Below, one piece after another: positions 1-63,916 of a stretch of DNA of 64,000 bases; within the stretch, counting starts at the first letter, position 1, and each line of letters starts with the position of its first letter. The notes beneath the pieces were generated by a model. That model was given only the letters and a program-made list of their open reading frames with translations. It was not told the DNA's origin and ran no database searches. The translations under genes were made by a program, and so were the position numbers. Source of the stretch: Amphiscolops sp. MND2022 (Eukaryota); the NCBI GenBank assembly GCA_964187785.1, contig OZ076409.1:18230001-18294000 (forward strand), read 5' to 3'.

Positions 1-1002
1 CAACACCTTGTAATAAGGAATGCAATGAACAGTGCATTGTTAACATTTTTGTTATTTGTATTGATGTTAAGTACGTTAGTTATTTGTTTGATGTTAACTC
101 ACGGTCGATGTAAGTTGGGCACGCCGCCTGTCACACCTATAACCACGTGATGTTTGGAATAACATTTGACCTTACTAGGACGAATTCCTGAAAGTCTTTG
201 AGGTGCTAACTATCTAACTGTATGTCGGTCCTCATGACCATTAAGGAATTTGTCGATTACAAATGGAATTTGATCACACTTGTAAGGGTATATATAGCAA
301 TGTTTCCTTGAGGTGATTATTAATTCCATACCGATTGTTCAGATCAGTTGATTTGTTTCGCATTTATAGATTGCAAGACTAGATTACCAAATAAAATATT
401 CAACCTTGAAATCTTGATGCCTACTACAAGGAAACAAAAGAAAGCTAGAAAGTCTAGAGGAATTGAGATGCTTTCTGACTTGGAGAACCTTGACATAATG
501 CTAGGGGAAAACCACTTCAATAGAAATGAAAGGGACGGAAGTGTTAGTAGCAATTTCGGCAGAAGGCCTGGTAGTACCTCTGCAGATGAACTAGGAAGTA
601 ATGGTGAAAACAGGCACTCAGCCACAAGGGACATTGATCCTGCTAATAATGCCGATTATGGTCGAAACTCAATTGGTGGCAACTCTAGTGCTGAGATTAA
701 CAAGTTGTCAAGTGAATTGAACTCTAGATTATCAAGAGAGTTAGATGATATGATGTGTAGTGTCAATTCTCAGATCCAAAGGGCAATTAGTGATGCAATA
801 AGCAACCAAGTACTCCCACAAATCCAATCCGCCCTTAGTGCCGGGTCAGGACACATGACACAAAACAGATGGGACATTCCGTCCGAGAGACCGGAAATAA
901 ATTCCGAAGGACTGCAAAATACTAACCCCAAAGACAGTTCAACTAGCAAGCATAACCATGACCATCAGAATGATGGTGGTATTAATTTAAATGCTTACGA
1001 CA
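1..1002 (+). repeat. 5' LTR of element 1 (truncated by window start)
   Basis: Matches 14347-15347 with only about 3 differences seen (substitutions near 88 and 643, 1-bp indel near 877); ends in CA. Confidence 0.93.
288..297 (+). promoter_or_regulatory. Putative LTR TATA box
   Basis: GTATATATAG about 125 nt upstream of the gag ATG (417); an equivalent GTATATATATG lies near 49706 in element 2; AATAAA at 390-395. Confidence 0.45.
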
Positions 1003-2129
1003 TGGTGACAGGAGACAACGAATCTCCGAATCAAGTTCCTGAGTTTCTCACAGGACGGATTCTATCGCGGAATCATCTTGACCAGTCCTATGAAGACATC
1101 AACCTTAACACGACGATCCCAGCACAAGAAAGACCCGCTCCGGTTGCCGAATCTGATCCAATTACTAGACTGGCAGATGTCTTGACAAACATGCAGAATC
1201 GACCAACAGCCCAACAACTCACCATACGCCCGGTCAACTCAAATACCATGACCTTTGACGGCAAAAGTGAGAAATTTGAACTGTTCGAAGATCTGTTTCA
1301 TACTATGATCAAGATGCAGCCAGAAATGACTGAACAAATGAAGATTAACCATTTCCACTCGCTTTTGAGGAAGAATGCTCTTCAGACGTTCAGAAATATC
1401 AACTCGACCAACCGACAGACTCTTGAAGACGTTTTGGTCATTTTCCGACGAAAATACGTCAAACCCGAGTCACAAGCGACTGCCAAGCACAAATGGCACC
1501 GCTTGGTCTTTGATCCCAACACGATGAAATTACCGGATTTCCTTGAAGAATTGAATCAAGGGGCAGAAAAAGCATTCGGCGATCATGCACAAAAAATGAT
1601 TGACAGCCTATTGTACGCAAAACTGCCTCCGAAACTCAAGCGATCAGTCAACATGGCCAGATTAGAAAATGGCTCTTACGACGAAATAGTTGCTCATTTG
1701 GAGAGGGAACTAGAGCTTAACGCCCTTGAGGAGTCAGATGACCTACCCATGGCAACAATGACCTCCTCATCCTCCAAGACTAAAACCCCTCTGTCCACTA
1801 ATCAAATGTCAGATATAACTTGCAACTACTGCAAGGAAAAGGGCCACATGGTCAAAGACTGTGAAAAACTCAAAAAGAAGAAAGAAAAAGATGCCCAACA
1901 AGGCAAATCGACGGAGAAGAAAACGTACCCTAAATGCGGGACTTGTGGCAAGAAAAATCATCCAGAGGAGCGATGTTGGCAGGGAGCAGGTGCTCACTTG
2001 AAACCCAAACGAACCAGACCTGAAGATTCTTCAGACACCGACAATGACTCCAAGGCACCCAAACCACACAACAAACCAACGTCCTCCAATACCCAATCCT
2101 CATCAAACAAAGATGAGTCAAAAAACTAA
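417..2129 (+). CDS. gag: Gag polyprotein (N-terminal 195 codons inside the LTR; capsid-like core; two CCHC zinc knuckles)
   Basis: ORF 348-2129, first ATG 417 (MPTTRK); FDGKSEKFELFEDLF core; CNYCKEKGHMVKDC and CGTCGKKNHPEERC. Confidence 0.9.
   Translation: MPTTRKQKKARKSRGIEMLSDLENLDIMLGENHFNRNERDGSVSSNFGRRPGSTSADELGSNGENRHSATRDIDPANNADYGRNSIGGNSSAEINKLSSELNSRLSRELDDMMCSVNSQIQRAISDAISNQVLPQIQSALSAGSGHMTQNRWDIPSERPEINSEGLQNTNPKDSSTSKHNHDHQNDGGINLNAYDMVTGDNESPNQVPEFLTGRILSRNHLDQSYEDINLNTTIPAQERPAPVAESDPITRLADVLTNMQNRPTAQQLTIRPVNSNTMTFDGKSEKFELFEDLFHTMIKMQPEMTEQMKINHFHSLLRKNALQTFRNINSTNRQTLEDVLVIFRRKYVKPESQATAKHKWHRLVFDPNTMKLPDFLEELNQGAEKAFGDHAQKMIDSLLYAKLPPKLKRSVNMARLENGSYDEIVAHLERELELNALEESDDLPMATMTSSSSKTKTPLSTNQMSDITCNYCKEKGHMVKDCEKLKKKKEKDAQQGKSTEKKTYPKCGTCGKKNHPEERCWQGAGAHLKPKRTRPEDSSDTDNDSKAPKPHNKPTSSNTQSSSNKDESKN
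1003..1014 (+). promoter_or_regulatory. Primer-binding site of element 1
   Basis: TGGTGACAGGAG immediately after the LTR CA end; the same 12-mer with one mismatch follows the element 2 LTR; the priming tRNA (ending CUCCUGUCACCA, possibly Leu) is not verified. Confidence 0.85.
2120..2126 (+). promoter_or_regulatory. -1 ribosomal frameshift slippery heptamer A AAA AAC at the gag/pol junction
   Basis: Lies directly before the gag stop; the -1 frame is open (KLTSPRLQ...) into pol; same heptamer at 51331-51337. Confidence 0.8.
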
Positions 2130-5100
2130 CTTCGCCACGACTCCAATACAACCAACTAATATCCGTCCGTCAATACATCAGGTCGGATCCTCCGACGAAA
2201 ACTTTCCATGAATACCAACAACAATTGATGGGTTACCCCTCTGTTGTCTGGCAGCAACAGATGGAAAAAGCTACCATTATCACCTATAATAATACCCATT
2301 TGCTCCAAAAACCAATTCCTGTATGGGACCCTGATTACACATCTGCTTTCACTAGCCGATTCAGGCCCATTCCCTTGGTAGACGACTACAACCCTACCTA
2401 CATAGATCCTGACTACGGACGAGATCCCTATTGGGATACCGAACTTTACAACCAGGATTTGTTGCAATTCCAATACGTTATCGATGACATAGAACTCTAT
2501 AACAGATCAGTCCACGACAATCCACCAATCACCCATAACAAGAAAACCAGAGCATTGATTGAAACATGGCAGATGAATGATGGTACAAGACATCCGGTGT
2601 TCCCAAACCCCTTGGGGACCGAAACCTCAGACAAACCAGAAGAAACAATACCACAGTCACTACTTGATGAAAGTCAGTTCCAGAACATCCTCATCACTAG
2701 AGAAGGAGAACCAGACTGTATTCCTCTGTCCACCAGCATAAACTTGAAATGCAAAAAACGCATGCTGTATTTCCCTATGGACTTTGGGGAACTGACCATA
2801 GATGGACTTATTGACACTGGTGCTTTATCCAGTGCAATCCCTGAAATGGACCTCCGGAAAATCAGGCTCCTATCGCCGCAATCAGTCATCCGGGAGGGTC
2901 CACCTCCGAATTTCCAGATAATGGTCGCAAATGGGCAACTAGAAACTCCAAAGAGTACGATAGAGCTCAAATTTGAAGTTGGTGACATAGAGTTCCATGA
3001 AATTTTCATAGTAATGGAACACTTGACAGGACCGATTATAGGACTCATGTTCCTACAGAGAAACCATACAGTTCTGGACATGAGGCAAGGAATACTGAAC
3101 TTTCCATTCTTTTCGATGCAGCTCAAAACAGCTGATCACAAATACTCGAATGTACTCGAACCAATTTTGAATCCTACCGAAATAACCATTCCGTCAAATG
3201 ACAGAGTCCTAATTAGGACCAATTCCCTATTGTACCCTGAAAACACGGTCACAGGGATTTTACAACCGAGCGACCTTCTCCATGAAGAAGGCGACATCAC
3301 ATTCTGTCCAGCCTTGGTCAGTTTGAATGATGGCAATATACAGATACAGGTAAACAATTTCACAGACCACCCTTACAAGCTCAAAAAGGGACTCCATATT
3401 GCCAGTTTCTCAGTCATGACGCCAGAACAGATGAAATACGTTAAACCGGTAGACCCAGCTTCAACCTGGCATTTGCTACAAAATGACCAAGAGCAGGCAG
3501 CCCATTACGTCAGTAGTCTCATCAAGACTAACAAGAATCCATAAAATACCGAAAACTACTGGTTCCCAACCCCAGAGAACCCAGGGAATCCGGAAGAACA
3601 TACACCAATCCAAAAAAGGATACTCCGTGAATTACTAGCCCTACAGGAACTAGAATCACTTGATCCCACAAAGGACGAGGAATCTAGAACAAAATTCCTG
3701 GAAAACTTTGACTGGAAAGACTCCACATTGACACCTGATGAAAAAGAGAAAATCGAACGATTACTAGTGGAGTTCCATGATATTTTTGCGAGACATAGAT
3801 TCGACATAGGCATGAATGAGGAATTCAAAGTGAAGCTGACACCCAAAGATGATTCCCCAGCCTATAGTCAGAGCCTCCCTGCACCGATAAACTTAAAGGA
3901 GGACATATTAGTTGAATTAGCCATGCTCCACAAATATGGCATAATAACTACCTTACCGTTCTCGAAATACGCCAGCCCAATATTCGCACAAAAGAAGCCG
4001 AATGGGAAACTGAGACTTCTGGTTGACTTGAGAAAAATCAACAACCTAATCTCTGATGATTATATTAACAATAATCATCCAGTCAGTACCCTAGTCGATG
4101 CCGCCCAACACATGGCAGGCAAGAAACTCTTTTGCAAGTTAGACTGTTCACAAGCGTATCATTGCCTTCCGATGGCTGACCAACGTTCAATCGAAATGTT
4201 GGCCTTTAACTTTGCAAGCCGCACATTTGCATATAGACGACTGGCACAAGGCCTTAATAGAGCACTGTCCGCATTCTCCAGCTTTATGAGAGAGTACCTT
4301 GACAAAGTCATAAAAGCGGACCAATGTGCACAGTATGTAGACGATATTGGCATCGCAGCCAACGACGCCGATCACCTCATTGCTAACCTGAGAGCAACTT
4401 TCAAATGCATCCAGGAAGCAGGCCTTAAATTGACGATGCACAAGTGCCATTTTGGTGCCACAGAAATCGATTTCCTTGGCAGGACAATAACCGCACAAGG
4501 CGTCAAGCCCCAACGGCAGAATGTTCAGAATTTCCTAGAAAAAACCAAATTTCCGAAGTCGAAAAAGGCTCTACAGAGATATTTGGGTTTCTTGAACTAC
4601 TACCGGAATTATGTCCCAAGACTGTCTGAACGCCTTGCTCCGTTCTACAAGATGCTGAAGAGTGACGAAAAAGTCCTAGTGTCCAAAGAACTGGTTCAAC
4701 AATTTGAGGAAATCAATCGAGCTCTGGACAAATGCTGCGACTTGGCCCTACAACAACCCATCCCGAACAAGCAAATTGCCCTAATGACAGATGCAAGCTT
4801 TGGTGCTGCAGGATATGCAGTACTAATTGAAGATGACCCGAGTCAGAAATTCACGTCAATCCGCAAATCATATGCACCGGTCGCTTATGGTTCAAAAACC
4901 TTCACCCCAGCCCAGATAAAAATGTCGATTTATGCAAAGGAATTCCTCGCGATTTATTTCGCATTCAAAGAATTTGGGCATATTTTCTGGGGAGCGCCGA
5001 AACCGGTCATAATCCTAACTGACAACAAAGCCGTAACGAGATTTTTCCAGACGAAAATCGTACCCCCAGCCCTGTGGAATGCATGCGACTATGTAATTCA

Positions 5101-7333
5101 ATTCAATTTTGTCATCGCGCACATCCCAGGAGCGCAAAATACGGCAGCGGATTATTTATCCCGATTGGAAGCCGATCCGAAAGACAAATTAGTCATGAAA
5201 ATCCGCGAAGATGTACAAACACTGCCAATAGAAATAAACGTCCAATCAGCCGGAGTCTCACAGGAAGAGCAAATCTTCTACACAAATGACGACGATGAGA
5301 CTGAAGAACAATATTGGGCGAGGAAAGAAGCAATCAGGAAAAACCCTGTAACTGAAGAACCTACTGTCACAATACAAACTCTATCTACTAACTTAGTCAA
5401 ACAACAACCTGAAATACAGGTCCGATTGAGGAAAACGAACCAGATAATTATTGAGCAATCCAAAGATACAGTACTGCAACAACTGAAAGCGAAGCTCCTT
5501 CATGAAGAGTACTCAGAAAACATACTGCAACAAGATGCTCGATACAGGCATTACGCTAATAATCTGGAAAGAATTGTCATCAAGGAAGACATACTAACAA
5601 GGCAATATTTTGATGAAACTGGGAATATAAAATACCATCAAATTCTTCTCCCGCAACACTTGCTGCCAGAATTGCTTCAGTCCCTACACGGGACAGCCCA
5701 CAAGCACCCAGGCATTTCAAAGATGCTGCAGGAGATCAGACAGAGATACTATTATCCCAACATGGCGAAACATGTCAAAAAGTGGGTACAAGGGTGTGAA
5801 CAATGTGCAAAGGACAAACGAGTCCCAAATGCAACAATCACGCCCGAACTACTTAACTTGCCGGAATGGGACCTTGGACCCGAAGACGCCATGCAAATCG
5901 ACTTATTGCCGAATCTTCCCCCAAGTGGAGGATACGAAAATGTTTTAACTGCAATTGATGTCTTCTCTCGATACTTGTTTGCTTATCCTCTTACGGACGC
6001 ATCAGCGATCAATGTAGCTAAAGCAATCATTGATATTATGACCAAACATTCTTACCTACCGACGACGCTCATTACGGACAAGGGAACTGCCTTTACCTCC
6101 ACGATCATTGCGGAAATTACACAGATTTTAGGCATTACCCTAAAATGTGCAACGACCAAACACCCGCAAACTATCGGGAAGTTAGAGCGAACACATGCCT
6201 CATTGAAAACGAATTTGAAAATGGCATGTGGAGAATATCGCCGACAATGGCATAAGTATTTGCCTTTAGCAGTTCTCAATCATAACACTAGTTATCATGC
6301 CAGTATCGGATGCGAACCGACAAGAGTGTTCCATGGGAGAATCCCATATAACATCTTGGATCACAAACTTGGAATGAACCCAAATGAGCAAATCCATCCG
6401 ACTACTGAATTCGCAGAAGAAATCCAGAACCGAACCAAACTCCTTATTGACAAGACAAAGCAGAACATCATGCAGTCATATATCAAATATAAGGAGTATT
6501 ACGACAGGAAAGCCAAAGCCGCCCCACTCAAAGAGGGCGATTACTGTTTTGTATTACAACCGAAAGCGGATCATCAAGGATCAAAAATTCCATTTAGGGA
6601 TTATCGTTGGGTTGGACCGTTCATAGTCCAGAAGATTTTACCTAATGAGAACTACATCATCCGCAGGCTTAATACAAATAAAACGCAGATTTTGCATCGA
6701 ATTCGTCTCAAAAAGTTTATTCCGAATCAGCCACTTGAGGACAATTTCCGAGAACAGCGCCTACAGCCGGACGACGAAATAATCATTCCGCAAGACGACT
6801 TGTATGTAATAACGTGGGAAACAAACTTTGGTGAGCAACTAGCTACACGAGGCAACGAGCCGATTCCGGCTAGCCTGACGAATGGCGAGAGGCCGACTAC
6901 GCCAGAAACGAATGTGAATGATGCAAACGAGAATGAAAGTGATTATGTAATCACGACTGATTATCCGAATGACGTCAACGACGCTGTGCGCAGTAGAACC
7001 GAAAGAATGAGAAATGACGTCAGCAATGCTAATGAACCTAGTGAAGCAAATGAGAATGAAAACTCTGATTGGCCGAATCCGGCCGTTTCCACAACGGATC
7101 AAGAAAAACCTGTGCCGAATACGGTTGAAAGACTAAAAGACGATGCGAATTTTCCAGAAAAGAATTTGATGAATGAAAACGATGCACAAAATTCTCCGAA
7201 AAAGGGGGATGATATTATCGTGCCCGAAATATCGCAAAATGATGCTAGAAAAGAGAGCTTGAGCCCCAGAGGAGGGAAATATAATCTCAGGCCTAATCCT
7301 AACCCAAACTACTCAGAAGACTTCAGATACTAG
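2126..7333 (+). CDS. pol: Pol polyprotein (PR, dUTPase-like, RT, RNase H, integrase) interrupted by one in-frame stop at 3542-3544
   Basis: LIDTGALSS protease; QYVDDIG RT; TDASFGAAG and DNKA RNase H; HGTAHKH...CEQC, IDVFSRY, TDKG, ERTH and WVGPF integrase motifs; ORFs 2225-3544 and 3728-7333 are in the same frame. Confidence 0.93.
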
Positions 7334-7585: not shown

Positions 7586-10500
7586 TCAGGATTTAGTAGA
7601 AGAATCCTTACTAGGACTACCAACGACAGAGGATGACGATGATCGGGAAACACTCCTTCCCTTCTTCCGCTTCTTGCTACTGGGGATCCTTACTGCGGAC
7701 TGATCTTCAACGGTACTACTCTCTGCCAAATTGACCTGCGTTGAAACCCTCTTCGGAGCTGAGTCGGCTTTGCGGTGAGTGGACAGGAGAGACTTATAGA
7801 TTCTTGACCGACCGAAAGTGTCAGTATAAACCCAAGGATCGTACTCTGAGGAAAAGGCAGCACGTCCAAAGGACTCAGCTAGAGCAGAGAACTTGGCCAA
7901 GTGGGAGTCTTCACTGCTCCGTAAAACCGATCCGGCAACATTGGCCATGTAACTCTGGCAAGGCAAGACCAGGTCCGTAAATCTGCTTTGCCCTCCTGCA
8001 GTGGTGACCTCTCCAAAGGTGACATCTGGGTAACTTGGGCTGACGGTGGTTGAACACAAACAACTCAATTTGAAGAGATATAACAAGTGTGGACGATCAT
8101 GAAGAAAATCAAGCCCCATCAGGAATTGAATCAAATCGGGTTCCACGCTAGTGATATCAAAGCTGGAACCGAAGGCAGTCTGGAGATGGTCCAGCAACTG
8201 AATATACTGGTCCCGACACTGAGACTCATTTGAATCTTCAACCCAAGATCGAAGTACAAAGGTGTTGTAGAGTACCTCGAAGTGCCGCAAAGCTACATCC
8301 GTGGGTCGCTTCAGCATTATATAAGGATCAAAGGCCGCCAATCCTTTTATGAGGTTGGTGCTGAAAGCTGTCTTCTCGAGTACTCCATTAATCAAAAACT
8401 GGATGTACTGCTGGCTGTCCTTGACGAAATCAGCTTTTACCTTATCGGCAGTGGCCAGGATGGCAGGACGTTCAGTTTTCTGGCCGAAATGGATTCCATC
8501 AGCCTTGACTCTGCTTGCCGTTGCCACTCGATTGCTCATCTTGAGACGAATCAGGTATTCGTCTCCGGGGAGGAAAGTACCCTCACTGGTCTGGAACCGG
8601 AGGAGGAGAAACCAAGCGTTGGCAATTGGGGCAGTGTCCGGAGTATAGATTCGGGAGCAAAGCAGGCTGAGGAAGCGGCTAACTTCTCCGCATAGATAGA
8701 AGGAAGCATCCTGGCGGTATTGCAGATTCACTGTGAAGCTGGAAACGACTAAAAACAAAACTGATGTCCAACTCAAGACAGTTTTCTCTCACGAAAATTG
8801 TACAGGACTACACTCACAGTCATTGACGATCTTGCTGAAGAACTCCAGCTTAACGGTGAAGAATTCGTCACATATCAGTGACCACTCGAAACTTTGTGCC
8901 TGGAACAAACATATGGCCAATTGACGATTGGAAAACGGACCTTTAGTTTGTTTGACGGATAAGGACAACCCAAACCCTTAGGGGCTTAAGTGCAGATAAG
9001 GAAATCTAACCCTTCCTCTGGAGCCAGATCCTTCTTGCAAGGGTGCGTGATTAGTGAGGTAGCGCACCACAGACTTCCACTCGGCAATGAGCTCTCGGCA
9101 AAGAATGGGCAGGGTTGGTACTTCTAGCTTGCAACTGGTTATGGCCTGAAATACCAATTAAACCTGCGTTAGCATGATAGGGATATCTAAACGTCCTGAC
9201 CCAGTTCCCGTTCCCTAGATGAAGATTCTATAAGAAAACTACTCACCTTGGTGAGCTCAGGACTTCTGATGACCCAGTCTTCCATGAGAGAACCGCCCAG
9301 AGAGACCATCAGAGCTTGCAGGACAGAGAAAAAATCTATTTTCCCAAAGACGCTGTAGCTGGTTTTATGCATGAGGCAAGCTAGGGAGAAATGTTCAAAT
9401 CGAGGACAGCTCTGAACCCCTTGGTTGTAATATCCAGACTCATCAATGGTTCTGGGTAGATCTGGATGACATCCCGAACAGGCGACTATTCCGGGCTTTG
9501 TGGACACAGCGGAGAGGAGGCGAGAAAGAGATCCCAGTTCGCCGGTAACATCTGTAGTGAATCGGGAGCTACGACAGACGAACACCCTACAGAGTTCAGA
9601 CCCCTTCCAGAACTTGATGGACATGTGTTTGAAAATTCCTACTGTTTCAAATTCGAGGGAGAAGCACTGTTGGGAGTTGACTTGCTCCGCGATTTCATCA
9701 AGACAACAGATGAAGAAATGTTGGAAAATCGCCTAAAGACAGAAAGCACCTTTTGGACTAAATAGGAAAGAGGAAGACTTAGGAGAGACTGTCAATGAGT
9801 GAAGCGAAAAGTACTTACCGACAATCTTTCTTCACCCCAATCAAAATCGTTGAAACTGCTTTGATGGTTGGTGAACGATCCAATTCGGGACCACAGGTTG
9901 CGCAAGACCATCATATCGCCTTGGGTCCTGATGTAATCCCCAACCAGGCAGAGCTGAGTTTTGAGGCGAGCTTCAGGGGTGTCCATGGTAGTGGTGGAGC
10001 CTTTGACGAAGTCGTCATAAAAAGGAAAGCGCTCACCAATGTCCACTAATTCAACATTCCTGAATTTAGGCAGCTCTCTAGCTAACTCCACCTTGGTCAG
10101 GAGTTTCCCGTTCCCACCTCGGACTCGGTGTTGCGTCTTCCCTGTGACTGGATCGACACTGCGGAGGTGTTCGTATCGCCAACGCTGGTCTCGCCGCAGA
10201 TGACGTGCAGTCCGATGGTGCCTGAGGATTTCGTATGGCCCCTTTGACTTTATGGAAAAATTCTTTTTACAAATGTGGCACCAGACCATGAGTGGATTAT
10301 GAAGAGGATCTGCTGGGCCAGAAATGAAGGATCTCGTCCATCCAATTTTGCTAAAGAATTCCTCCCGCATAGGGACCCCACGTCTGGAGAGGGCCTTGCT
10401 TCCTTTCTTCTTTTTAGTCCCGGAGGATCCAGCGCTGGGTGCGGCTAGAGCTTGATTCCTAACCTCAAGCAACGTATCATCTTGGCTACTGGACTCTGGG

Positions 10501-11810
10501 GCATCAATCTCAACATCCTGTGATATGTCTTGACTGGGAGTTTGCGGTTCAGGAGCGCCTTGACCTTGTGTGACCTTCTTGAAGGACTTGGTTATAAGAT
10601 CCATTTCCGTTGCGCTGTCAGTCTCCCCATAATAGGAGGACTCTCCTGTCATTTCAGTCTCAGTTGATCCAACATCTCTGTCCCCCAGAGTGGCTTCCCT
10701 TTCGGTGTCACTTCCACTGGAATCTCCCATGGCTGCAGGTCCAGGAGTCTGAGCTCGTCTACCCGAGTAGAAATGTGCAGTCCTGGATGGAGCAATGGCT
10801 GGCCTGCCTCGAACCGCATCAATAACCATTTTTTCCATGGTTGAGAAGGACCGTCCTAGAGTCTCATCGGTAAGGACTCTCAACAAGTGATATACTTGCG
10901 GCTCTGTGAAGGTGACGGTGGATTGGCCTACGGGGAACCTCGAGGATGGCGACTCATCGAAATACTCCTTGAGAATTGCCCGACTCCTTCCTGAGAGGTG
11001 TGGTGGTTCTTTCTGAGTTGCGCCTTGCCCGGACGACGGCCCACTGGTACCTGGAACGTGAGGGTCAGGCCCAGTTTCGTCCCCTCCATCTGTTCCAGAG
11101 GCGTGAGAGAAAGGATGACTTCCATATAAAGCTACTGCAGCTATCACGCTGGACTGGTCGGTTGCCCCCTCATCTCCGCTGGGCTCTGTGAGGTATCGAA
11201 CTCTTACTTCCCCACCGGGGAGGGGTGGAGCGTCTCCTACCGAGGAAGCTGCTTCCGTGTCCTGCTGCAGGGTTGGGCTATCTCCAGTGGTGTTGGCTGA
11301 AAGATCAATATCCACAAGTTCAACTAATTGGGATCCGGGTGTCCCGACTACTCGAAAGGCTGACTCTAGAGCAGAAAGGTCAGCACTTGGGGTCTCCCCC
11401 ACATTATCAGAAAGTGGGGTGCTCGCTCTTCTAGGCTCAATGATGGGCGTAATGACAGGATCCTTTGGGGTATCAAGATTGACTTCTGAGAATTGGCCTC
11501 TTTGCTCTGTCTCCTCTTGCGGAAGGCTTGATGTTTGCGCTCCCTCCAACTGACGTACCATATTGTCTGCATATGTAGTAACATCTGGGTCACTATCGGC
11601 GTTATGGGAAGAAGTGGCTTCGTCAATTCGTTGGCCGTGTGATTCTTGGGACGTAGCTGGATGCTGGACCTGCTCAGTCTGTTCAGACAAGGGGTTGCTT
11701 GTCGAAACGCTGTCAGAGGGGTTAGCTGGTGTATTCACAACTTCAGTTGTTTGGTTCTCTAAACGAAAAGAGATAAAATTTGGCGGTATGCTTCCTCGAA
11801 AAGAATCCAT
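7586..11810 (-). CDS. Spliced antisense accessory gene of element 1 (~1285 aa; Zn finger plus hAT-transposase-like body). Exons 11810-9819, 9732-9247, 9145-9011, 8899-8818, 8748-7586
   Basis: Four GT-AG introns (86, 101, 111, 69 bp) whose removal gives one open frame colinear with the uninterrupted C-terminal part of ORF 57373-60135; true start uncertain (strong acceptor at 11759-11760). Confidence 0.85.
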
Positions 11811-15545: not shown

Positions 15546-15581
15546 GAAGCTTTGGTTTTGGGATAAAACTTTCATGCTTGA

Positions 15582-16421: not shown

Positions 16422-16439
16422 GTATATCCAATCTTTTCG

Positions 16440-33977: not shown

Positions 33978-34084
33978 GTAAGTTTCTCTCACCGTTAAAA
34001 ACTGGAGTCGGATTTTTAAAACCTTTTCTTTTACAAAAACTTTTCTCAAAGTTTTACCACGAAAATTTTAAGATGATAGTTTAA

Positions 34085-48426: not shown

Positions 48427-48819
48427 TGTCACAGCCCCACTTGAGCTGTGAGTATTGCAGCAGAGTCAACCCAGTCTTCGAAGAATAAATTAGGAAATGG
48501 AAGAAGGAGAAATTAAAACAGAAAACCAGAAAACAATCAGTCCAATCCATATAACCTGAAACAATGGCGATAAATAATATGTACAACATAATTGATTAAA
48601 AAAATATATGTTTACATATNNNNNNNNNNNNNNNNNNNNNNNNNNNNNNNNNNNNNNNNNNNNNNNNNNNNNNNNNNNNNNNNNNNNNNNNNNNNNNNNN
48701 NNNNNNNNNNNNNNNNNNNNNNNNNNNNNNNNNNNNNNNNNNNNNNNNNNNNNNNNNNNNNNNNNNNNNNNNNNNNNNNNNNNNNNNNNNNNNNNNNNNN
48801 NNNNNNNNNNNNNNNNNNN

Positions 48820-48868
<49 letters not shown>

Positions 48869-54300: not shown

Positions 54301-56981
54301 AGAAACTATATCCCCCGATTATCAGAGAAGATCGCTCCTTTCCACGAACTCATAAAATCTGACAAGCCAGCAAAAATCGACCAAGAACTTATATCCAACT
54401 TCGAAGCCATCAACAAGTCATTGGACAACGCGTGCGGACTTTGGCTCAAACAACCACTGTCAAACCGACATTACGTCTTGATGACTGACGCCAACTTTAA
54501 AAACGCCGGATACGCCCTAATGACCGAGGAGGACCCAGAACAGAAGATCACTTCCACCAAGTAAACCTATGCCCCTGTAGCATTTGGATCCAAAACTTTC
54601 TCCCCGTCACAATTGAAAATGTCAATTTATGCCAAGGAGTTTTTGGCCATCTACTTTGCCTTCATGGAGTATAGCCATATCTTGTGGGGGACCACCAAAC
54701 CAATCATTGTCCTCACAGACAACAAGTCAGTCACGAGGTTTTTCCAAACCAAAATGATCCCACCCTCCCTGTGGAACACCTGCCATTTCGTACTCCAATT
54801 CCACTTCAAAATCGCCCATGTACCAGGACGGATGAACACGGCGGCCGATTTCCTCTCCCGATTGGACATCAGCCCCAAAGAAAAAGTCCTTCTCCAAATC
54901 AGAGAAGACATCCAAACAACACCCATTCAGGTGAACATTCAGTCCTCCGACATTCATGAGGAAGACCAGTTCTACTTTTTACCGGAAGACGACTCCGAGA
55001 CAGAAGAAGATATCTGGGAGCGAAAACAAAGAGCACGCAAGAAAATATACAACCCCCAAGAACACCAAACTGACTCACCAGCCGCGACAAATGAGACAAT
55101 CTCTCGAACGGAGAACTTACCATTAGTCTGCAATAATATCCAAGACCCAGAACAAGAACAAAGGCGAGAACAAACCAACTTCACAGTGACTCAAGCTTCC
55201 CACGCAGTCTGAGGCTGCACCAGGACCAGGACCCCGTCCTCCGAAATCTCAAACTGAGAATGTTAAAGGAGCCGTACGACACCCAACTTCTGAACGACGA
55301 TCCCAGAGCAGCCAAATACTTAACCCAAGAAGACAGAATCATCATCAAAGATGGGCTACTGTACAGACAATACTTCGGAGACAATGGGAAAGTGAAATAC
55401 TTACAGGTGCTACTTCCTCAACAGCTGGTCGACGAATTCATCCAACACCATCATGGAAAATATGGCAAACACCCAGGGATAGCCAAAACCATCCAACAAT
55501 GCCGTGAAAAGTACTGTTTTCCAGGACTCGCTGCCAAAATAGCCAACCACACCCCTTTCTGCAAAGAATGCGTCCAAACAAAGAGAACTTCAAACAGTAG
55601 CATCACACCACCTTTAATTGATATGTCACAACTAGCACTGGGACCTGAGGATGCGCTTCAAATGGACATAGTCCCATTTGACGACCCATCAGGAGGATAC
55701 AATGCGGTTATTACAGCAATGGATGTCTTCTCACGATACCTATTTGCATACAGTGTTGCTGGATTTGATTCCAGAACCGTCACCCGAGTCCTAATAGACA
55801 TCATTACTCGACACAGCTACCTCACCACAACCATCATTACTGATAAAGGGTCCCAATTTGTAGCAGAATCCATGCAACAAATCACTACAGCTCTGGGAAT
55901 CCAATTTAGGCATGCTACAACAAAACATGCCCAAACGATAGGCATCCTGGAACGAACTCACGCATCACTGAAAGAGAGTCTCAAAATTATGACAGGGGAA
56001 AGGCGTACAATGTGGCATTAATTTTTACCAATGTCGGTATTAAACTACAATACCTCATATCACACGTCCCCGGGCTGTGAGCCCAGCAGAGTGTTCCACG
56101 GAAGAGTCCCCTACAATGTACTTGGTTTGAAATACGGACTCAAAACACAAAATCCTGCCCCAACCAACAGTGAAATTGCTGAAGGAGTGCTCCGACAGAC
56201 AAAAGAAATCGTTGAGCAGACACAACAGTCACTGATGCAGGCCTACGTTTGCCATAAACTCTATTACGACAAGAAGGCCTCCGCCAACCCCTTGGTAGTA
56301 AACGACTACTGCTATGCATTGCATCCAAAGGCGCATAGCCAATCGACAAAACTGCCGTTTAGGGACTACCTTTGGACGGGACCATACATCGTGGTCGAGA
56401 CTTTACCAAACAACAATTATCTAGTTCGAAAACTTCAGACAAATCTCACACAGATCCTACATAGAATCAGGCTCAGACCATTTAAGAGTACACACAAACT
56501 GCCTGACATCTCCACACCCCTCAAGGATTTCCAGCAAGATAACGAAGTTATTATACAACATGACGACCTATACGCCTTAGCTTGGCAAGAGTTTTACCAA
56601 AAAGACCCTACCCATCTCGGAAACAGCCCGTCACCCGAACCCAAATTGATACCGCCAAACACGGAAACAGCCGACGAAACCACCCACCCCGACACAATAC
56701 CCGAACCTGAAAACATCAGCAATCACCCGGAAGCCCAGGCAGATGACCTAACCCTAGACATAGCCGATGAACCCGAAGATCCCGCACCCACCCCTAAATC
56801 CCCCCGAAAATCAAAGTACAATCTTCGACAAAATCCGACATCAAATTTGAAGCCGGATTTCGCTTACTACAACCCTATAGAAGTCAATCCAAACAACTCG
56901 ATAATCCTGAATCACGGGCCAGACGACAGCCCAGAAACACAAGTTTTAGCGGACCTCGGCCCTGACGGTGGCCTGAGATAA
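51337..56981 (+). pseudogene. pol: pol of element 2 with multiple stops and frameshifts
   Basis: LIDSGALV, QYVDDIG, TDANFKNAG, HHGKYGKH...CKEC, MDVFSRY, WTGPY; stops ending at 52824, 53259, 53868, 54564, 56021. Confidence 0.93.
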
Positions 56982-57372
56982 GAAAACTGAAAAGGTCCCA
57001 GGCGCTAGCCTGAACAGCTATACTGTGACTCAAATTCAAATCTCCTCAACTCATAATAGCTCTTTTTCTCTCTTACACTCTATTACTTCCTACTCTTCCT
57101 ACTCTATTACTCTTCCTACTCTAGTACTTGGATGAAAACAATACAGAGGCTAAATACTAAATTGATTGACCCAACGGACCATTGGGTTGCCTCAAATTTT
57201 TTCTTTGCTCCATAATACCAGAGCATTCTTATCTCGATTTTCTATCTATTTTATTTTCTAAGACGGAACCGACTAGCGGAACCCTATAACATCAGAACAA
57301 TGGGTACACAATAAAGAGAAACAACAAAGAAATTAAATCAAAGCAGTTCATCAACGTGCAGTTTCAAATAAT

Positions 57373-60300
57373 TCAACATGACTTCTCTTGACGAGATCCT
57401 TTCTTCGACACCGTTCTCTTCTTTTGCACCGACGAACTCGTAGAGGCCTGCACTGGCTCGGATGCCTCAACCACAGAAACAGTCTCAGCAGCAGACGTAG
57501 TACCAGACGGCACACCACGGGATGACCGCCCACCAGCCATCCGAGATCTCCACCTCTCAACCTGACCAGTGTAGTAGGCGGTGTAACATCGAAACAAACT
57601 CTCCAAAACCTCCATCCAAGCATGACGACTGATATCCACGAATTGATCGAAAGAGGTGCGCGCCAAGAACTGATGCCCCACAGGCAAATTCACCTTTAAC
57701 TCCTCCAAACACTCCACGGTCAGTAAATCATTCGAGACAATTTTGGGATGGAGAACAAACGACTGCACCGCACTGATCCCTGAACGGATAGCAGCTGTAG
57801 GAAGATCAACTCCACTACTTGAAATATCCACCGGAGGCATGGTATTTAGCCCAGAACACACCATCACTCGCAACAGACGAACCACTTGTTTGACGTAGCC
57901 CCGGCACTGATAAACATCACTAGCTTCCAAGAATCCGAATACATCACAAATTTGTTCAGGATCAGAAGACCGTTGACGCAGCTCTACAACTAGAGACTTG
58001 AATTCATTTACAGAAGCCTCCCGGTCAACTCCACTCAGGAAGCTAGCACCATGTAAACAGCTCACCAGATCTTGAAACAAATCTACCACATACTCAGCAT
58101 CTCCACACAGTAGCATATCTACACTCAAACAGCTGAGCGAACGGGCCACACGGGAACTACAATAAGCTGAAGATCCAAGCCGTTTCAACAACTCAAGCAA
58201 AGACCCCTGACATTCTTGCAGGAAGGTGCGGCGAGGAGCGTCATCGAAACCCCGCAACGCCGTCATGATGCTGGGCTCAGACTGCAAACATTCCCCAGCG
58301 GTAACATTTGCCCAATCGTTCAGAGGCTGATCGATATACTCGAACCAATTATCCACAGACGGCAACTGACTAACTTTCTTCACCTTGCCCAAAAGACTCC
58401 AGTAAAAGAAGCAAAAGTCAGTAAAATTGTGGCACGCGTAATCCCGAACCTTCGGATCCTGCTGCCTCCTGAAGTTCGAATTGTAGCACAGCAACACAAC
58501 GTGCAAAAAGGCAAAGCGCGGCAAGACTAAACGGTCAGCACACAGAAGAGAATCTAGATCTACAACATTCGCTGACTTCTTCATCAATAGCACATTGTTC
58601 GATAAGCACAGCTTCACGTCAGCCCAATTATCCAGAAGTTCCTGCAGAACCCCACACAAAGACGCAAAGGGCACGACTCCGGTTTCCAAACATAGACGCA
58701 ATTGAGGCAGATTTAAAAACCATGCCTGATGACGCACCCGCTTGAGACGCTGAACCAAATTCTCCAGAGCTGAGAACGGATCCACAGACCCCACACACAC
58801 AATACTGGACTCATTGATTAGACGCCGCAACAAATCGAAAGCCATAGCAACAACAGGCACAGGACGACCAACGGTCTGACACCAGTCGATATATCCATTA
58901 AATAGAACAGGTGGGCAGTTCAAAACTGACGCAGGTCCACGAATGGTCGACACAAGGGACAGAACACGTGCTAGACACCGCATCTCAGACTCACAGGATG
59001 TCTCACCATGAGGTTCTTCAAAGAGGTGTACCTCGCGAAGACAGTCATCGGGGCAGCATCGGACGATACACTTCACACCGGAGTATGAAGACTGCAGCGC
59101 CAAGCTAAACGGGCCGTCCCCAAGCCATGATTTCACACGACGAAGCACACGCGGATAGAGAGTCGGCACAAGGACCACTAATGTTTCAGTCTTACTCCAA
59201 GTAACTGAAGCGTATGGACTCTCGACTGGCAAAGTAGTCCGGAACTGGTTCCACAGCCGACGTAAGAACAACTGGGACCCTCCACTTTTCAGCAGCTCCA
59301 ACAAGCATCCCACAAAAGTCGTTGGGGGCACATTGGATGGGACGCCAACCAGTGCGTCCACTTCGTCTTCTAAAAACTTGTTCATGCGCCCCAATACCAC
59401 AGGAGGAGTTTCCTCAATCTCGGCACGTTGTTCAGCAGTCAGGTCAGCAACTCGGACGGGATCAAACTTCTCCGTATAAATCACATCCTCGTGGTCGTAA
59501 CGGTACCGACGATCTTTGAGGTAGTGACCCTTGCACTTGAAATGCCGCCAGATTCCTCGTGCACCCCGAGACAGAAAGGAAACATCTTTCTTGCAAATCG
59601 AGCAGTTGAACCCATTCGGACTCTTGTCATCCCGTCGACTGACAAACAACCGGGGAATCGCATGGTCACTCATGGCTTTTGTCAACATATGACGCTCCGT
59701 CTGCATTTTTGCCCGTTCTTCATCCCGACCCAACATATTCGCTTTCTTCGCCTCCAGAGGATCCAGCACTCGTCCAGGGTTATCAGCGTCAATGCCTTTC
59801 CCTTTCAGGAGCCAAGACAACTCCTCAAATTCTAAACATAACAACAAGTAGTCAAACAAATGACAGCATACGACAACACTCCATACAAATATCCAAGAGA
59901 TAGAGGCAAACAAAACAACCCGAAAGAAACCATCGAAACAGTCAAGAAAGCCAAGCAACAGAACAACAACAATACACTTACGCTTTGCCAGGCTTTTAGT
60001 TTCTTTAAGAGACTCAGTCCGTTCAGCTCGGGCAGCACTTCGGGCCAGCAACACACACTGCTCCGCGGACATCATCATTGGTGAACCACTAGGAACTGCA
60101 TCCAGACCAGCTGGCAACAAGCGAGCAAGTTTCACAACACTATAAACTGACGTTAAACCGCACCACGAGCAAAATTACACAACACGAAGAGGGCATGAAG
60201 AGCGGAATGAAAAGAAAATTCAACATATCATTTTCCCAGTCATTGTACACAACTGAGGCCTCCACGCCAACAGCGACTCGTCCGTGCTGAGTCCTGCCAC

Positions 60301-61221
60301 GCTTGGACGACACACCGGGTAGCTCTGAGACAGCATCACTGACAGGGGCAGGAGTATCACCCGCCACCTCACACACAAATACATCACTGTCTTCGGAAGA
60401 CTCAGTTCCCGGCCCAGGCACTGCTCCAGCAACTATAATACAACCAAGGTATGAACAACAGGAAATGCAGAACAAGTGTCCCTACAAGCATTACATGAAC
60501 CCATTTCTTTGTACATGACACCCTTAGAAAGAGAAAGAGAAAGAATACCTACTTTCAAGAGTCCGAGAAACAGAAATCATGGGGGGCACATGGTCATCTC
60601 CCGAACTGTCATGAGCAGAGGGCGGCCTGGTAATCGAGCCAGAAATGACATCCGCCAATCGAACCCGTTTCGCAGACTGCACACTGGTAGTTGACAACAT
60701 TCGACTAGCCCTTGCCTTCTTCTTACTTTGGGACCTCGTACTACGGATCGGGACATAATCCTCATCAGATCCATCATCGGTAGCTACAGAAAGTAGATGA
60801 ATAGAACGCGTTCAAAGAAACCTAGAAAAGGCTGGCCACCTATTAATTTCTAGAAGAGATTACCTTTCTTCCGTGCCAAGTAATCAATGTCATGCCGATC
60901 TTCACTTGTGGCAGAATGGAAAGATCCAGTTGCGATAACACTCTATGCTCTCCGCTACTGCCATCACTGGAATCTGCTTTGTCACCAACGCCTGGCACAC
61001 GTCCCTCTGCTTGCTCAACCGACACACCAGCTTCCTACTGAACGTCGCCACCACTCGCCTCTCCATTTTCATCATCACCCCCACATCCACTAGTTCTTTC
61101 CTCTCCACGGACAACTGACTCAACCACAGACTCAACTTCCGCTCCACTCTCGACTAATTCCGCTTCTCGACTGCGGTGCAACAATGCACTATCTTCTTCA
61201 GTGGAACACATAATCAATTCT
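57373..61221 (-). CDS. Spliced antisense accessory gene of element 2 (homologue of 7586-11810). Long last exon 59831-57373; intron 59981-59832; further 5' exons up to ~61220 only partly resolved
   Basis: CSICKKDVSFLSRGARGIWRHFKCKGH aligns with CHICKKNFSIKSKGPYEILRHHRTARH; phase-1 GTAAGT...TTTAG intron; acidic low-complexity 5' exons, one with a stop at 61035-61037. Confidence 0.8.
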
Positions 61222-61439
61222 CTGAAAATAACAAACCATGAAACATAAAAAAGAAGATGTGGCGTAAAATCAATGGAAATATTAATACTAAAAGTTATCT
61301 ACTATAAAAGGAGAGTTGTTCAGTCTGCCAGCTCAACAATTCAACAAGCTCAACACAAATGGTGTGAACAGATTTTCAGGACGCGGATTAGTCAGTTATA
61401 TTCCTAATCAACTGACAATCAGCTTGCTACTCAAACAAA

Positions 61440-62036
61440 ATGCAAAATTCCAACTCCAGCGATCAAACGAACGAAGACGTCTTTATTCTCGACCGAGATC
61501 AGCCAGCACAGCCAAGACAAAGGCCCAATACACCGCCGCCTAATTATAATATTATCAATCCAACGCAGCTTACTATTACTTATGAAATAAGTAAAACAGA
61601 AGATCTACACGTCGTCTTCGTCCATGACCAACTGCTCGAGAATGCAATTAACGCTGAAAACGAACAAGGAGTAATACGAAGATTTACTACAGACAATCCG
61701 GTTATACCAGATGATGAATTCGTGAGCCCAATCAGACGGTTCAATCAAGCAGACCAATACAGCCCTGATTATATTTTCGACAGCCCTATGAGCCCGATCA
61801 GTGAGACCGACAGCAGCTCAGAAGGCTACTGGTCAGGCAGCAGTTGGGAAAGCAGCTCTTCATGGCGATCATACGATTCAATGAGAGATGACCTCACTAC
61901 TTTGTTTGATACACCGATACGATCCATTTCCCAATTTCTCCTTCTTGGGGGAACTGGGCAAAGAAGCCGAGGACTGTCACAGCCCCACTTGAGCTGTGAG
62001 TATTGCAGCAGAGTCAACCCAGTCTTCGAAGAATAA
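61440..62036 (+). CDS. Small acidic/Ser-rich accessory ORF3 of element 2, ending inside the 3' LTR
   Basis: 198-aa ATG ORF; EDVFILD, DSSSEGYWSGSSWESS and CEYC; last 20 codons lie in the LTR; TATAAAA at 61303. Confidence 0.7.
   Translation: MQNSNSSDQTNEDVFILDRDQPAQPRQRPNTPPPNYNIINPTQLTITYEISKTEDLHVVFVHDQLLENAINAENEQGVIRRFTTDNPVIPDDEFVSPIRRFNQADQYSPDYIFDSPMSPISETDSSSEGYWSGSSWESSSSWRSYDSMRDDLTTLFDTPIRSISQFLLLGGTGQRSRGLSQPHLSCEYCSRVNPVFEE
61956..61974 (+). promoter_or_regulatory. Putative polypurine tract
   Basis: GGGCAAAGAAGCCGAGGAC directly before the LTR start. Confidence 0.55.
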
Positions 62037-63916
62037 ATTAGGTAATGGAAGAAGGAGAATTGAAAACAGAAAACCAGAAAACAATCAGTCCAATCCATAT
62101 AACTTGAAACAATGGCGATAAATAATATGTACAACATGATTGAACAAATAAATATATACTTACATATACATTAGTACTTTTATTCATTTATACACACACA
62201 TATATATACACGTACTTACATCATAACGGGGCTATGGTGCAATTAATAATAATAATAATAATAATACAGTGCTACAGCTAACAATATGCGAACCACCGCC
62301 TAACGAGTGACCAAACAATTTTATAGTAAGACTGCGGCCTGGCAGCCGGCCTCAAATTCAGACCGTGAAGCGCCGGCCTGGGACGCGGCCTGAGAATGAA
62401 CCACGCTGCTAAGCACAATGCGCTGAATTAAGAGTGCTAATGAATACATGTAAACGTTTTAATACCCTCTGCAGTAACTAAATGACGACATGAGTGCAAT
62501 TGTCCTAATAATAGACCTTTCACATCAAATGCACTAAATACGATGAACCGCGGCCTGGGATACGGCCTGAGAATGATTATGCACCAAGTTAATTATAAAA
62601 GCAGTAAACGCTGATGTTATTTCGTATTTTTGTTCAAGAATAAACATGGAGCTTATTAATTGTGTTCATGAATGATGTTGTCGGTTAAATATTACATTTA
62701 TTGATTTTTTGCATGTAAATAGTGATTGATTAATAAACAAGCCTGGACCTCAGCCTGGGCCCAAGCTTTAGTTGTACACATTAATAACTTGTAGTTCCTA
62801 TTCCCCAAACCCGTTGCTGTTGAATTATGTTAACCATCGCCCAAGATGGTGCTTCTCATAAACATTAGTCACCAGTATTTATTCTTTACCTCCTGAAGTA
62901 AATTTGTCCGTCCCGGACTGTGGCCTGGGACTAATGCCTCACAGTTCTCTCACAGTTCTCAGTCAAATCAGCCTTGTAAACATCGCATGAACTGTCCTAT
63001 CTACTCATTTACTTTTCTGTGCGCGATTTTGTTAGTCTAAAGCTAGAACGATGCTATCTTTATTAATCTAAGGAATATTTTTGTAAAATATTGACTGTCA
63101 TTCTTTTTCCAAATTCTCACATTCAATTTGCAGTACTCTTGATGATTCACCACTCTCAATTTCGCCAAGTTCAGCTTCGGCGTCTTAAAAGAGCGGGAAA
63201 TTGGAGGCGAATGGAAGCGGAGTCGCAACTCAGACTAGAAGTGGACGCGTGTTTTCTTCGGAAAGCATGAACAAGCTGAAGGTCTGAGTTCGACAAAGCG
63301 GAACTGAACTTCCGGTTTCCCCGCTTAGGATGGACGCCGGGTTGAACGGCATGTGAAATATTGTTGTGTTTTCCCCGCTCTTCGGAGAGTGAAAATTATA
63401 TATATGCTGAAATTTGGGAGCCATTAGTAGTTGAAATTTTGTTTCGTTGCGAATTATTAACTTGCTAATTGAACGACAATTAACATTTTGCAATCTGCAT
63501 TTTCTTTGTTCATCAATCAGTTTGAACTATTTCTTAAGAAATTTGAGATCAATCCAAACAGCATGCCTGAGCGAAGTTCTAAGGGGAAAGCCAGACGTGA
63601 ATCAATCACAAGTTCAGTAGATGAGCCAGAGTGTTCGAGCATGAGGACGGGCAATGTCCCCAGCATTTCCGACAAAGATTTTGCGGACTTGACAGAAAAA
63701 ATCTAAAAGTCGGTGAATACGCGGATTAAGGACACAGAAACCGGACAACGAGAAATACTAAAAATGATAGAAAATTTGTCTTCTAAAATAGACTCGTTGA
63801 CTGACAAAACGTCTTGCGATTTGAATCAAGGATTGAATGGAGTAAACTCTGAAAACGTAATACTAGAGAATAGACCCATTAATTAAACGAATTCCATCAA
63901 GATGTCAGTCAACACA
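61975..63916 (+). repeat. 3' LTR of element 2 (1942 bp)
   Basis: TGTCACAG...CAACACA followed by the TSD; a few percent divergent from the 5' LTR by eye. Confidence 0.95.

Follow-up and report, generated by a model that had tools for sequence, protein, structure and literature searches.

Long Gypsy-type retrotransposons of Amphiscolops sp. MND2022 carry an intron-containing antisense gene whose product has a predicted Hermes-like fold

The window analysed, a 64,000-nt stretch of the Amphiscolops sp. MND2022 genome (GCA_964187785.1, contig OZ076409.1, 18,230,001-18,294,000 of the forward strand), contains two LTR retrotransposons separated by 30 kb (15.3-48.4 kb) of host DNA and other repeats that lie outside the present finding. 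Element 1 begins 777 bases upstream of the window start and has a total length of 16,124 bp, with LTRs of 1779 and 1778 bp that differ by 3 mismatches and 1 gap, and with GCCTA as target duplication. The forward strand carries the last 1002 bp of its 5' LTR (1-1002; the preceding GCCTA is outside the window), a 12-nt primer-binding site (PBS; 1003-1014) complementary to the 3' end of a host tRNA-Leu(CAG), and a gag gene of 570 aa with CCHC knuckle(s) (417-2129), whose first ~195 codons are within the LTR and whose frame includes the PBS. A slippery heptamer A-AAA-AAC (2120-2126) is located before the gag stop, and pol (2117-7333), in the -1 frame, encodes protease, a weak dUTPase-like region, reverse transcriptase (RT), RNase H, and integrase. 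The in-frame pol stop at 3542-3544 is private to the element 1 copy, 8 of 8 siblings being open at that position, and does not therefore represent a programmed stop separating protease from RT. On the reverse strand, five exons of the antisense gene join into one 1285-aa frame, i.e. exon 1 (9819-11810), with an acidic Ser/Thr-rich N terminus and a CCHH zinc finger, exon 2 (9247-9732), with RNase H-like strands, exons 3 (9011-9145) and 4 (8818-8899), and exon 5 (7586-8748), with the C-terminal part of the hAT-like fold and a basic tail; a model with three instead of four introns gave no open frame. ORF3 (12874-13658, forward strand), acidic, Ser-rich, and 260 aa long in siblings, is frameshifted near 13200 in the window copy and reaches 88 nt into the 3' LTR (13570-15347), which is followed by GCCTA.

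Element 2 (48427-63916) spans 15,490 bp as assembled, and its LTRs are ~95% identical and flanked by a GTTGG duplication. Its forward strand contains the 5' LTR (48427-50227, preceded by GTTGG and with an N gap at 48620-48819), the PBS (50228-50239), a gag gene broken by frameshifts and a stop (49873-51340; slip heptamer at 51331-51337), and a broken pol (51331-56981) with 5 stops and 1 frameshift from the protease on, further breaks being present in gag and the linker. The last exon of the antisense gene (57373-59831, reverse strand) is open and contains the zinc finger and the entire hAT-like fold; the four short 5' exons and four introns (59832-61211, same strand) were placed approximately by sibling alignment, and one splice donor is damaged. 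The suggestion that this exon was selectively spared was discarded, since its 818 codons contain 0 stops where, with 5 in 1550 for comparison, ~2-3 are expected, a non-significant difference. An open ORF3 of 198 aa (61440-62036, forward strand) extends 61 nt into the 3' LTR (1942 bp, 61975-63916), after which GTTGG is repeated. Neither of the two window copies is intact.

The four-gene, bidirectional plan that the first-pass annotation had attributed to two LTR retrotransposons of 15-16 kb is thus present in both elements, with some corrections and with 5-bp target duplications. The gag start inside the LTR (ATG at 417 and 49873) and the heptamer ahead of the gag stop, the latter also in 8/8 siblings, were correctly identified, and the LTRs are, as proposed, unrelated as DNA (best blastn match between the elements, 15 nt, E 0.43; none by tblastx). 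The PBS, described as conserved, follows the LTR in both elements, but the copy in element 2 has one mismatch with respect to the site of the clade. As to the accessory proteins, considered only weakly alignable, the antisense proteins are clearly homologous (21.7% identity over ~440 aa, E 2.6e-20), whereas the ORF3 pair cannot be aligned by blastp and has in common position, composition, and the overlap with the LTR start. The intron positions of the antisense gene also differ between the two elements.

Both elements are genuine LTR retrotransposons of one abundant and recently active clade. TGT...ACA ends and a perfect 5-bp duplication were observed in 24 of 24 elements, a set chosen for clean LTR pairs, and the PR-RT-RH-IN order of pol is that of Ty3/Gypsy. 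The PBS matches over 12 nt the 3' end of tRNA-Leu(CAG) genes of the same genome (2 of 6 loci were called as tRNA genes), and the 15 positions before the 3' LTR contain 10-12 purines in the element-2 group but only 5-8 in the other two groups. The best PDB scores of the RT were tied among foamy-type, Ty3, and 8r0s entries (97-101 bits), and the clade RT is 23-37% identical to other Gypsy RTs of the genome. There are 49 copies with an RT core identical to that of element 1, and several LTR pairs are 99.5-100% identical. The RNA 3' of the slip site showed no stable structure (z -0.4 and -1.6), metagenome and viral collections yielded no confirmed related loci, and a search for longer relatives of the distant fragment P0178 found none.

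The accessory module had been proposed to be selected and lineage-defining, and the data agree with this proposal. When the RTs of 31 module-bearing copies were analyzed together with 6 outgroups drawn from 30 non-clade Gypsy loci (used as the RT outgroup source only), all 31 fell on a single 100/100 branch. All 52 copies selected by their RT contained the antisense gene, which was convergent to pol at the 18 of 18 divergent antisense-picked loci examined. Instead of neutral decay, the antisense gene and ORF3 show purifying selection, with omega values of 0.03-0.24 for those comparisons within the element-1 group that have unsaturated synonymous sites, and of 0.09-0.12 in the element-2 group. 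Synonymous sites are otherwise saturated, yet the frames persist, as do the GT-AG splice sites, which are conserved while the introns diverge. The antisense tree and the RT tree have the same three main groups. Cassettes have been exchanged between pol backbones, with RTs 93-98% identical at the nucleotide level accompanied by antisense regions of 55-66% identity.

The antisense protein had no match in Pfam, including hAT, BED, and TRP28 (PF04195) domains, sequence and profile searches of the PDB gave nothing significant, and a profile-profile comparison with six hAT transposases of the same genome was negative. The DUF4371 search of the genome, with no match anywhere, was uninformative. The alignment-based AlphaFold model of the element 2 last exon, in contrast to a single-sequence fold (pLDDT 38), reached a pLDDT of 91 and a pTM of 0.79. 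In a Foldseek search of the PDB, Hermes occupied each of the top 10 rows (best E 6.2e-5), and the following row among those listed, at rank 13, had an E of 0.055; the TM-scores were modest (0.30-0.37 by query length). The VIA match to Hermes had a Z of 13.2 and an rmsd of 5.1 over 399 residues, the next Z being 6.3, and model residues after ~656, which form an extra C-terminal helical part, were not aligned to Hermes. The sole significant match in a viral-library search was a hAT protein (E 1.1e-5), and the ESM Atlas neighbours, to be taken as leads only, were hAT-derived ZBED5/FAM200/GTF2IRD2 clusters (0.85-0.90). These data suggest that the antisense protein is very probably a derivative of a hAT transposase, an origin that, given the negative sequence-level searches, rests on the predicted structure.

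The catalytic register was deduced from secondary structure, with no residue-level superposition on Hermes, and the residue roles were those given in the available part of PMC2533014. In this register a conserved DDE triad is absent, as are the CxxH and RW motifs; the end of strand 1, corresponding to the first DDE position, is acidic in 7% of 42 alignment rows, the pair of columns that could represent the end of strand 4 is acidic in 5% and 10% of 40 rows, and the segment expected to hold the Glu helix is non-helical in the model. The protein is thus quite probably non-catalytic, despite a Glu at the first position throughout the element-1 group and a column 625 that is acidic in 72% of 64 rows. 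The zinc ligands C, C, H, and H are kept in 40/41, 37/40, 38/38, and 38/39 rows, respectively, and the finger, with no Pfam BED match, sits at the N-terminal place expected for a BED finger; in Hermes the N-terminal zinc finger binds subterminal repeats, according to the accessible text of PMC10368747. What appears to be new is an antisense protein without a Pfam match that is predicted to combine a Hermes-like fold and an invariant CCHH finger with the lack of a conserved DDE triad, of terminal inverted repeats, and of free copies.

We moderately favor an explanation in which a hAT gene was captured once, in antisense orientation, its product now serving the element as a DNA-binding regulator without catalytic activity. 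The anatomy shows ordinary replication, with tRNA-Leu priming, a -1 gag-pol frameshift, integrase, and 5-bp duplications. An ancestor would have acquired the transposase gene between pol and the 3' LTR, in what was presumably a single capture. Because the gene is antisense to the genomic RNA, its introns should be invisible there to the spliceosome and would be copied along through retrotransposition, as expected from splicing logic. The gene has lost its inverted repeats and DDE triad, still encodes the zinc finger on a transposase scaffold, and has since been held by purifying selection. A divergent internal promoter would most likely drive both the antisense gene and ORF3, and the antisense protein would be nuclear and bind specific sequences in its own LTR or promoter, aiding expression of the element or countering its silencing, with ORF3 as a possible acidic cofactor. 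The antisense protein may well regulate transcription or silencing of its own element, and there is precedent in anti-silencing proteins that are encoded by TEs and whose target repeats co-evolve (available part of PMC5735166). Candidate targets are subfamily-specific repeated 7-mers, which 7 of the 9 LTRs examined contain at levels reached by ≤2 of 100 shuffles; the LTR of element 1 itself and one other have no enriched repeat. LTR identity to element 1 is similar (64-75%) whether the antisense cassette of a copy is close or distant, which gives no sign of co-variation of protein and LTR. A more detailed version, in which the retrotransposon domesticated a dead hAT transposase as an exchangeable module that recognizes the element's own LTR motifs and, together with a SUMO-binding-like ORF3, activates or shields the element, can be put forward only tentatively.

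The same hAT origin could also serve an opposite role, a dead transposase on the LTRs repressing its own family through copy-number control or exclusion of related elements. The fold, zinc-finger, and selection evidence fits this as well, swappable and deeply diverged cassettes on a near-identical RT would suit an immunity-type specificity, and host transposase-derived repressors of LTR elements exist, as exemplified by the fission-yeast CENP-B proteins on Tf2. Such repression is nevertheless unlikely, considering the great abundance and recent activity of the clade and that a cost of 4-5 kb should lead to loss of the cassette by cheating copies, yet 52 of 52 copies keep it. A role at integration, with the protein binding cDNA ends or target DNA and tethering or steering integrase, would agree with the ability of transposase folds to bind element ends and target DNA, and self-targeting might be reflected in the recurrent head-to-tail pairs whose spacing equals the length of an element less one LTR (4 such pairs in 104 hits, and also one triple). 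However, recombination or circular intermediates can also give tandem copies, the integrase is intact and highly conserved, no common sequence was found in the target duplications (n = 24), and the antisense gene is separately oriented and unfused to pol, which makes this role rather improbable. It is highly unlikely that the protein is still an enzyme whose active site was remodelled, a nuclease or recombinase acting, for example, in cDNA processing or in plus-strand primer making without a polypurine tract. Although the first catalytic position is Glu in 13/13 copies of the element-1 group, acidic residues are also conserved in several further columns, and the element-1 and 'a' groups have only 5-8 purines in the 15 positions before the 3' LTR, the first acidic residue is missing in the element-2 group, the second and third positions have no acidic residue conserved across groups, and the degenerate tract is explicable by the coding constraint of ORF3. 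Finally, passive carriage of an ordinary hAT transposon that had inserted into a single Gypsy copy can practically be dismissed, since, even if nested insertions are common and ordinary hATs occur in this genome (150 scored matches), there are no convincing terminal inverted repeats around the gene (only weak chance-like inverted pairs) and 0 free copies among 42 fetched loci, its frames and splice sites outlast synonymous saturation, and its tree and that of the RT share their main groups.

If the antisense protein is indeed a captured hAT derivative that regulates the element, one kind of jumping gene would have turned the enzyme of another into its own tool. Transposase domestication is usually told as hosts taming transposons; here a transposon of a different class seems to have been the taker of the transposase, and it has retained the gene long enough for synonymous saturation and turnover of intron positions. 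Like Hermes, ZBED5, FAM200, GTF2IRD2, EPM2AIP1, and SLEEPER, the protein has the common predicted fold with an N-terminal zinc finger. It differs from hAT transposases in lacking inverted repeats, the DDE triad, and a Pfam hAT match and in its extra C-terminal helical part, and from hAT-derived host proteins in that its gene is not fixed in the host but moves as part of a retrotransposon.

The combination of features, suspected in the first-pass annotation to be undescribed, was not found in any family in the literature searched, nor was any report of a hAT-derived antisense accessory ORF (Repbase, Dfam, and GyDB were outside this comparison). The layout alone is not new, because plant and fungal Gypsy elements are known to have accessory ORFs in antisense between pol and the 3' LTR. 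According to the portions available of PMC7264820 and PMC11963269, plant Retand/Grande/RIRE2 and fungal Boty likewise have a long region there, in which an antisense ORF is conserved whose product has been proposed to act as a regulator in the nucleus, and gene23 of Grande has its own promoter; a nested-TE origin of these ORFs is unsupported by similarity to other TEs, and their origin and function are stated as open questions. The antisense ORFs of the Retand/Grande type contain TRP28 (PF04195) or nothing recognisable, in contrast to the predicted full hAT-like fold and zinc finger of the TRP28-lacking Amphiscolops protein, which is paired with a divergent ORF3; introns are not mentioned in the part of PMC11963269 consulted, and the Amphiscolops gene is predicted to be spliced. 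In the Amphiscolops family the origin of the antisense ORF may be readable from structure, and its function is testable, since there are numerous near-identical copies, cassettes that were naturally exchanged on one and the same RT, and candidate LTR target repeats. Such genes escape Pfam and profile searches, and other orphan retrotransposon ORFs may hide similar captures.

As a functional model only, with no homology implied, VANC of VANDAL is an accessory protein that is encoded by a TE, diverges rapidly, and has target repeats specific to its family (available part of PMC5735166), although the TE concerned is a DNA transposon and VANC is similar to MAIN, a host protein (available part of PMC13547354). 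The Amphiscolops protein, if it acts as proposed, would correspond to VANC in an animal, with a transposase as its starting material, and might account in part for the abundance of the clade in the genome. Planarian Burro and rotifer Vesta, Juno, and TelKA are also large or have extra ORFs, and they have a dUTPase-like region between protease and RT, which is weak in Amphiscolops (E 0.038; precomputed PF00692 on 2 of 120 homologues), but their extra ORFs are of the env, GDSL, DEDDy, or BIR types, unlike the Amphiscolops cassette; a transposase and introns are not mentioned in the available part of PMC5408684, nor antisense genes in that of PMC6431247. Odin is likewise a divergent invertebrate LTR lineage without env, but, according to the part of PMC9040795 available, it has gag and pol only and a dual RNase H, whereas the Amphiscolops clade has two extra genes and one RNase H region detected by Pfam.

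The two Gypsy-type elements of the window were found to share one anatomy. Element 1 (16,124 bp in total) has its first 777 bases outside the window and its end at 15347; between its two LTRs, 3 mismatches and 1 gap were counted over 1779 bp, and it lies within a 5-bp target duplication. The LTRs of element 2 (48427-63916) show about 95% identity, and this element is flanked by a 5-bp duplication of its own. In both elements the gag start lies within the LTR, the primer site lies within gag, the heptamer A-AAA-AAC is located upstream of the gag stop, and pol, which is read in the -1 frame, encodes protease, RT, RNase H and integrase; the elements of the clade work like Ty3/Gypsy elements. In the host genome, tRNA-Leu(CAG) genes match the primer site with their 3' ends. 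Lesions are present in both window copies. Their RT domains share 74% identity, and the LTRs are unrelated at the DNA level, as the first-pass annotation had stated; the four-gene plan that it had ascribed to both elements is real.

Some features of pol and of the 3' end were also observed. A weak dUTPase-like match (window 3170-3420, E 0.038) lies between protease and RT of element 1, the position of a dUTPase-like region in Burro and rotifer elements. Element-2-type pol contains a long Pro/Thr/Gln-rich linker from the slip site to the protease (window 51337-52330), and an open sibling frame of this type spans 1950 aa, versus 1738 aa in element-1 siblings. The purine-rich tract before the 3' LTR (window 13555-13569 and equivalents) is absent in two of the three groups of the clade, because ORF3, the small ORF divergent from the antisense gene, passes through that place.

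Many copies of the clade were detected in the host genome (1.07 Gb). With one antisense exon as query, 104 of 7296 candidates were scored, 40 of them at 98% or above and 64 at 76-81%, and the RT core was identical to that of element 1 over 167 aa in 49 of the 150 best RT matches. The first 52 of these 150, all of the nearest RT subgroup, were used as linkage sample: the exon search gave an antisense match at the expected distance for 37, and inspection of the sequence revealed both the antisense gene and ORF3 in all of the remaining 15, so that linkage to RT within this subgroup was complete (52/52). At loci found by divergent antisense queries, RT, RNase H and integrase were convergent to the antisense gene in 18 of 18 cases, 17 with an LTR pair, and nine of nine further loci picked by the element-1 exon lay within elements, one with pol deleted. 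All 24 clean-ended elements (14.7-16.6 kb) had TGT...ACA termini and 5-bp duplications. In an RT tree whose bootstrap was not fully converged, and for which 2 loci gave no usable RT, the 31 clade RTs formed one very long branch (100/100) with respect to six other Gypsy RTs and split into an element-1 group, an element-2 group and a third group; a FastTree of the antisense gene recovered the same three groups. This single branch and the 52/52 linkage support the proposal that the accessory module is lineage-defining, and the architecture itself is real. Some database fragments match the host genome at just 30-45%, a hint that relatives occur elsewhere.

The antisense gene was analyzed in an alignment of element 1 and 11 siblings. 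Its four introns (predicted in element 1 at 9818-9733, 9246-9146, 9010-8900 and 8817-8749, minus strand) have conserved GT and AG ends and diverged, gapped interiors; the exons are codon-like, and the five exons of element 1 join into a single open frame of 1285 aa. The element 2 gene has introns in its N-terminal part and a one-exon core, and no intron position is common to both elements. At another locus (L114, host contig C2:37179070-37186069) intron 3, retained in siblings, is precisely missing. Taken together, these last two observations indicate that introns were gained or lost inside the retrotransposon. Many pairs with element 1 were saturated at synonymous sites; where measurable, omega was 0.03-0.15 for the core exons, and it was 0.10-0.24 for the low-complexity N-terminus. 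In the element-2 group it was 0.09-0.12 (2 of 7 pairs measurable), and in the third group each of the 10 pairs was saturated. Judged from sequence, the antisense gene is a spliced gene under selection. ORF3, which is acidic and Ser-rich, has the same position in each of the three groups, overlapping the LTR start, with an omega of 0.08-0.37 (6 of 16 pairs measurable); the low values in measurable pairs of both genes bear out the earlier suggestion of a selected accessory module. A SUMO-interacting-like motif was found in 13 of 24 ORF3s versus 2.6 expected, counts that are non-independent owing to near-copies; it occurs in two of the three groups and is absent from that of element 2.

Sequence methods (Pfam, PDB profile, and profile-profile comparison with hATs of the genome) gave no significant match for the antisense protein. 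Its model, built from 97 aligned sequences, is confident (pLDDT 91, pTM 0.79) and comprises a zinc finger at the N-terminus, a domain of helices, a sheet of the RNase H-like type and a large insertion that is also helical. The ten best Foldseek matches were all Hermes, and an independent structure aligner gave Hermes at Z 13.2 (rmsd 5.1, 399 residues) and ISCth4, RAG1 and Tn5 at Z 5-6. The only significant match in a viral library was a hAT protein, and language-model neighbours, taken as leads only, were hAT-derived families. The catalytic triad of Hermes is D180, D248 and E572 (PMC2533014, excerpt), and in ordinary hATs of the genome an Asp follows each of strands 1 and 4 and a Glu lies in a late helix. 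In a register inferred rather than superposed, the first and second places of the antisense family are acidic in 7% (n = 42) and 5-10% (n = 40) of sequences, respectively, and the third falls in a segment that is non-helical in the model. In the element-1 group the inferred first place is Glu in 13 of 13 and the second Ser in 12 of 13, with no conserved residue at the third. CxxH is absent from the aligned family, hAT RW reads P-F there, and the four zinc ligands hardly vary. The genome also contains ordinary hAT transposases (L096-L113) with DDE and RW intact and open frames of 600-700 aa, none with detectable sequence similarity to the antisense protein.

In six copies the RT-region DNA was 93-98% identical to element 1 and the antisense region just 55-66%; in four others the values were 83% and 66-79%. 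Synonymous divergence agreed, with RT pS down to 0.014-0.028 next to saturated antisense exons. This mismatch indicates that the cassette has been exchanged by recombination. A subfamily-specific repeated 7-mer exceeded shuffles in seven of nine LTRs tested; that of element 1 had none above shuffles.

Beyond the anatomy and mosaicism, the linkage and selection, the conserved splice sites and the predicted fold, all of which the analysis shows, we propose that a hAT gene was captured once, anciently, by a retrotransposon, in an antisense orientation that would let its introns survive reverse transcription. The captured protein would have lost catalysis, its gene would be expressed together with ORF3 from a divergent promoter, and its zinc finger may bind the element's own DNA, by analogy with the Hermes finger, which binds subterminal repeats (PMC10368747, excerpt). 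For such a protein, a role in activation or anti-silencing is favored as somewhat more likely than not. Self-repression is doubtful, and action at integration slightly more so. A remodelled enzyme is improbable. Passive nesting of a hAT within a Gypsy element is scarcely credible; no inverted repeats bounding the antisense gene were found. What would be unusual about the clade is that a retrotransposon has retained a DNA transposase in disarmed form.

The plan is paralleled by the antisense-ORF layout of plant Retand/Grande elements, whose antisense ORFs are of unknown origin and function in the accessible text (PMC7264820, PMC11963269), and differs from those of Burro, rotifer and Odin elements as excerpted (PMC6431247, PMC5408684, PMC9040795). 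The available portion of a paper on plant transposable elements with host-derived accessory domains does not contain the word hAT (PMC13547354), and genome papers on LTR-rich marine worms give, in the sections seen, repeat totals only (PMC9911081, PMC6451197). In the openly accessible literature that was searched, no LTR retrotransposon was found to carry a gene derived from a hAT; the clade may already have been described in subscription journals, Repbase, Dfam or GyDB.

Directly after element 1 lie a GC-rich 16-bp satellite of about 53 copies (window 15583-16422) and, next to it, a 1075-bp tandem duplication with 99% identity (16439-18583). Several dispersed repeats, which are MITE-like and have long inverted arms, occupy 20158-20864, 21093-23506, 32010-32404, 34064-34840, 37918-38450 and 47985-48423, and an exon between both elements (38984-39304, minus strand) encodes an EF-hand motif pair (E 1.8e-14) and is part of a host calcium-binding gene. 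Elsewhere in the genome, a large tandem array of tRNA-like sequences (C8:35.59-35.65 Mb, units mostly about 296 bp) has 3' ends that match the primer site of the clade, a site with 810 matches genome-wide. Same-strand matches recur at distances of 13.6-14.5 kb, roughly the length of an element less one LTR: four pairs were seen among the 104 scored antisense-exon matches (C5:67769767/67784112, C6:27809329/27823671, C12:14843707/14858172 and C3:21647701/21661941), and a separate search gave a triple (C10:2574432/2588071/2601710). This spacing suggests head-to-tail tandem elements with a common LTR.
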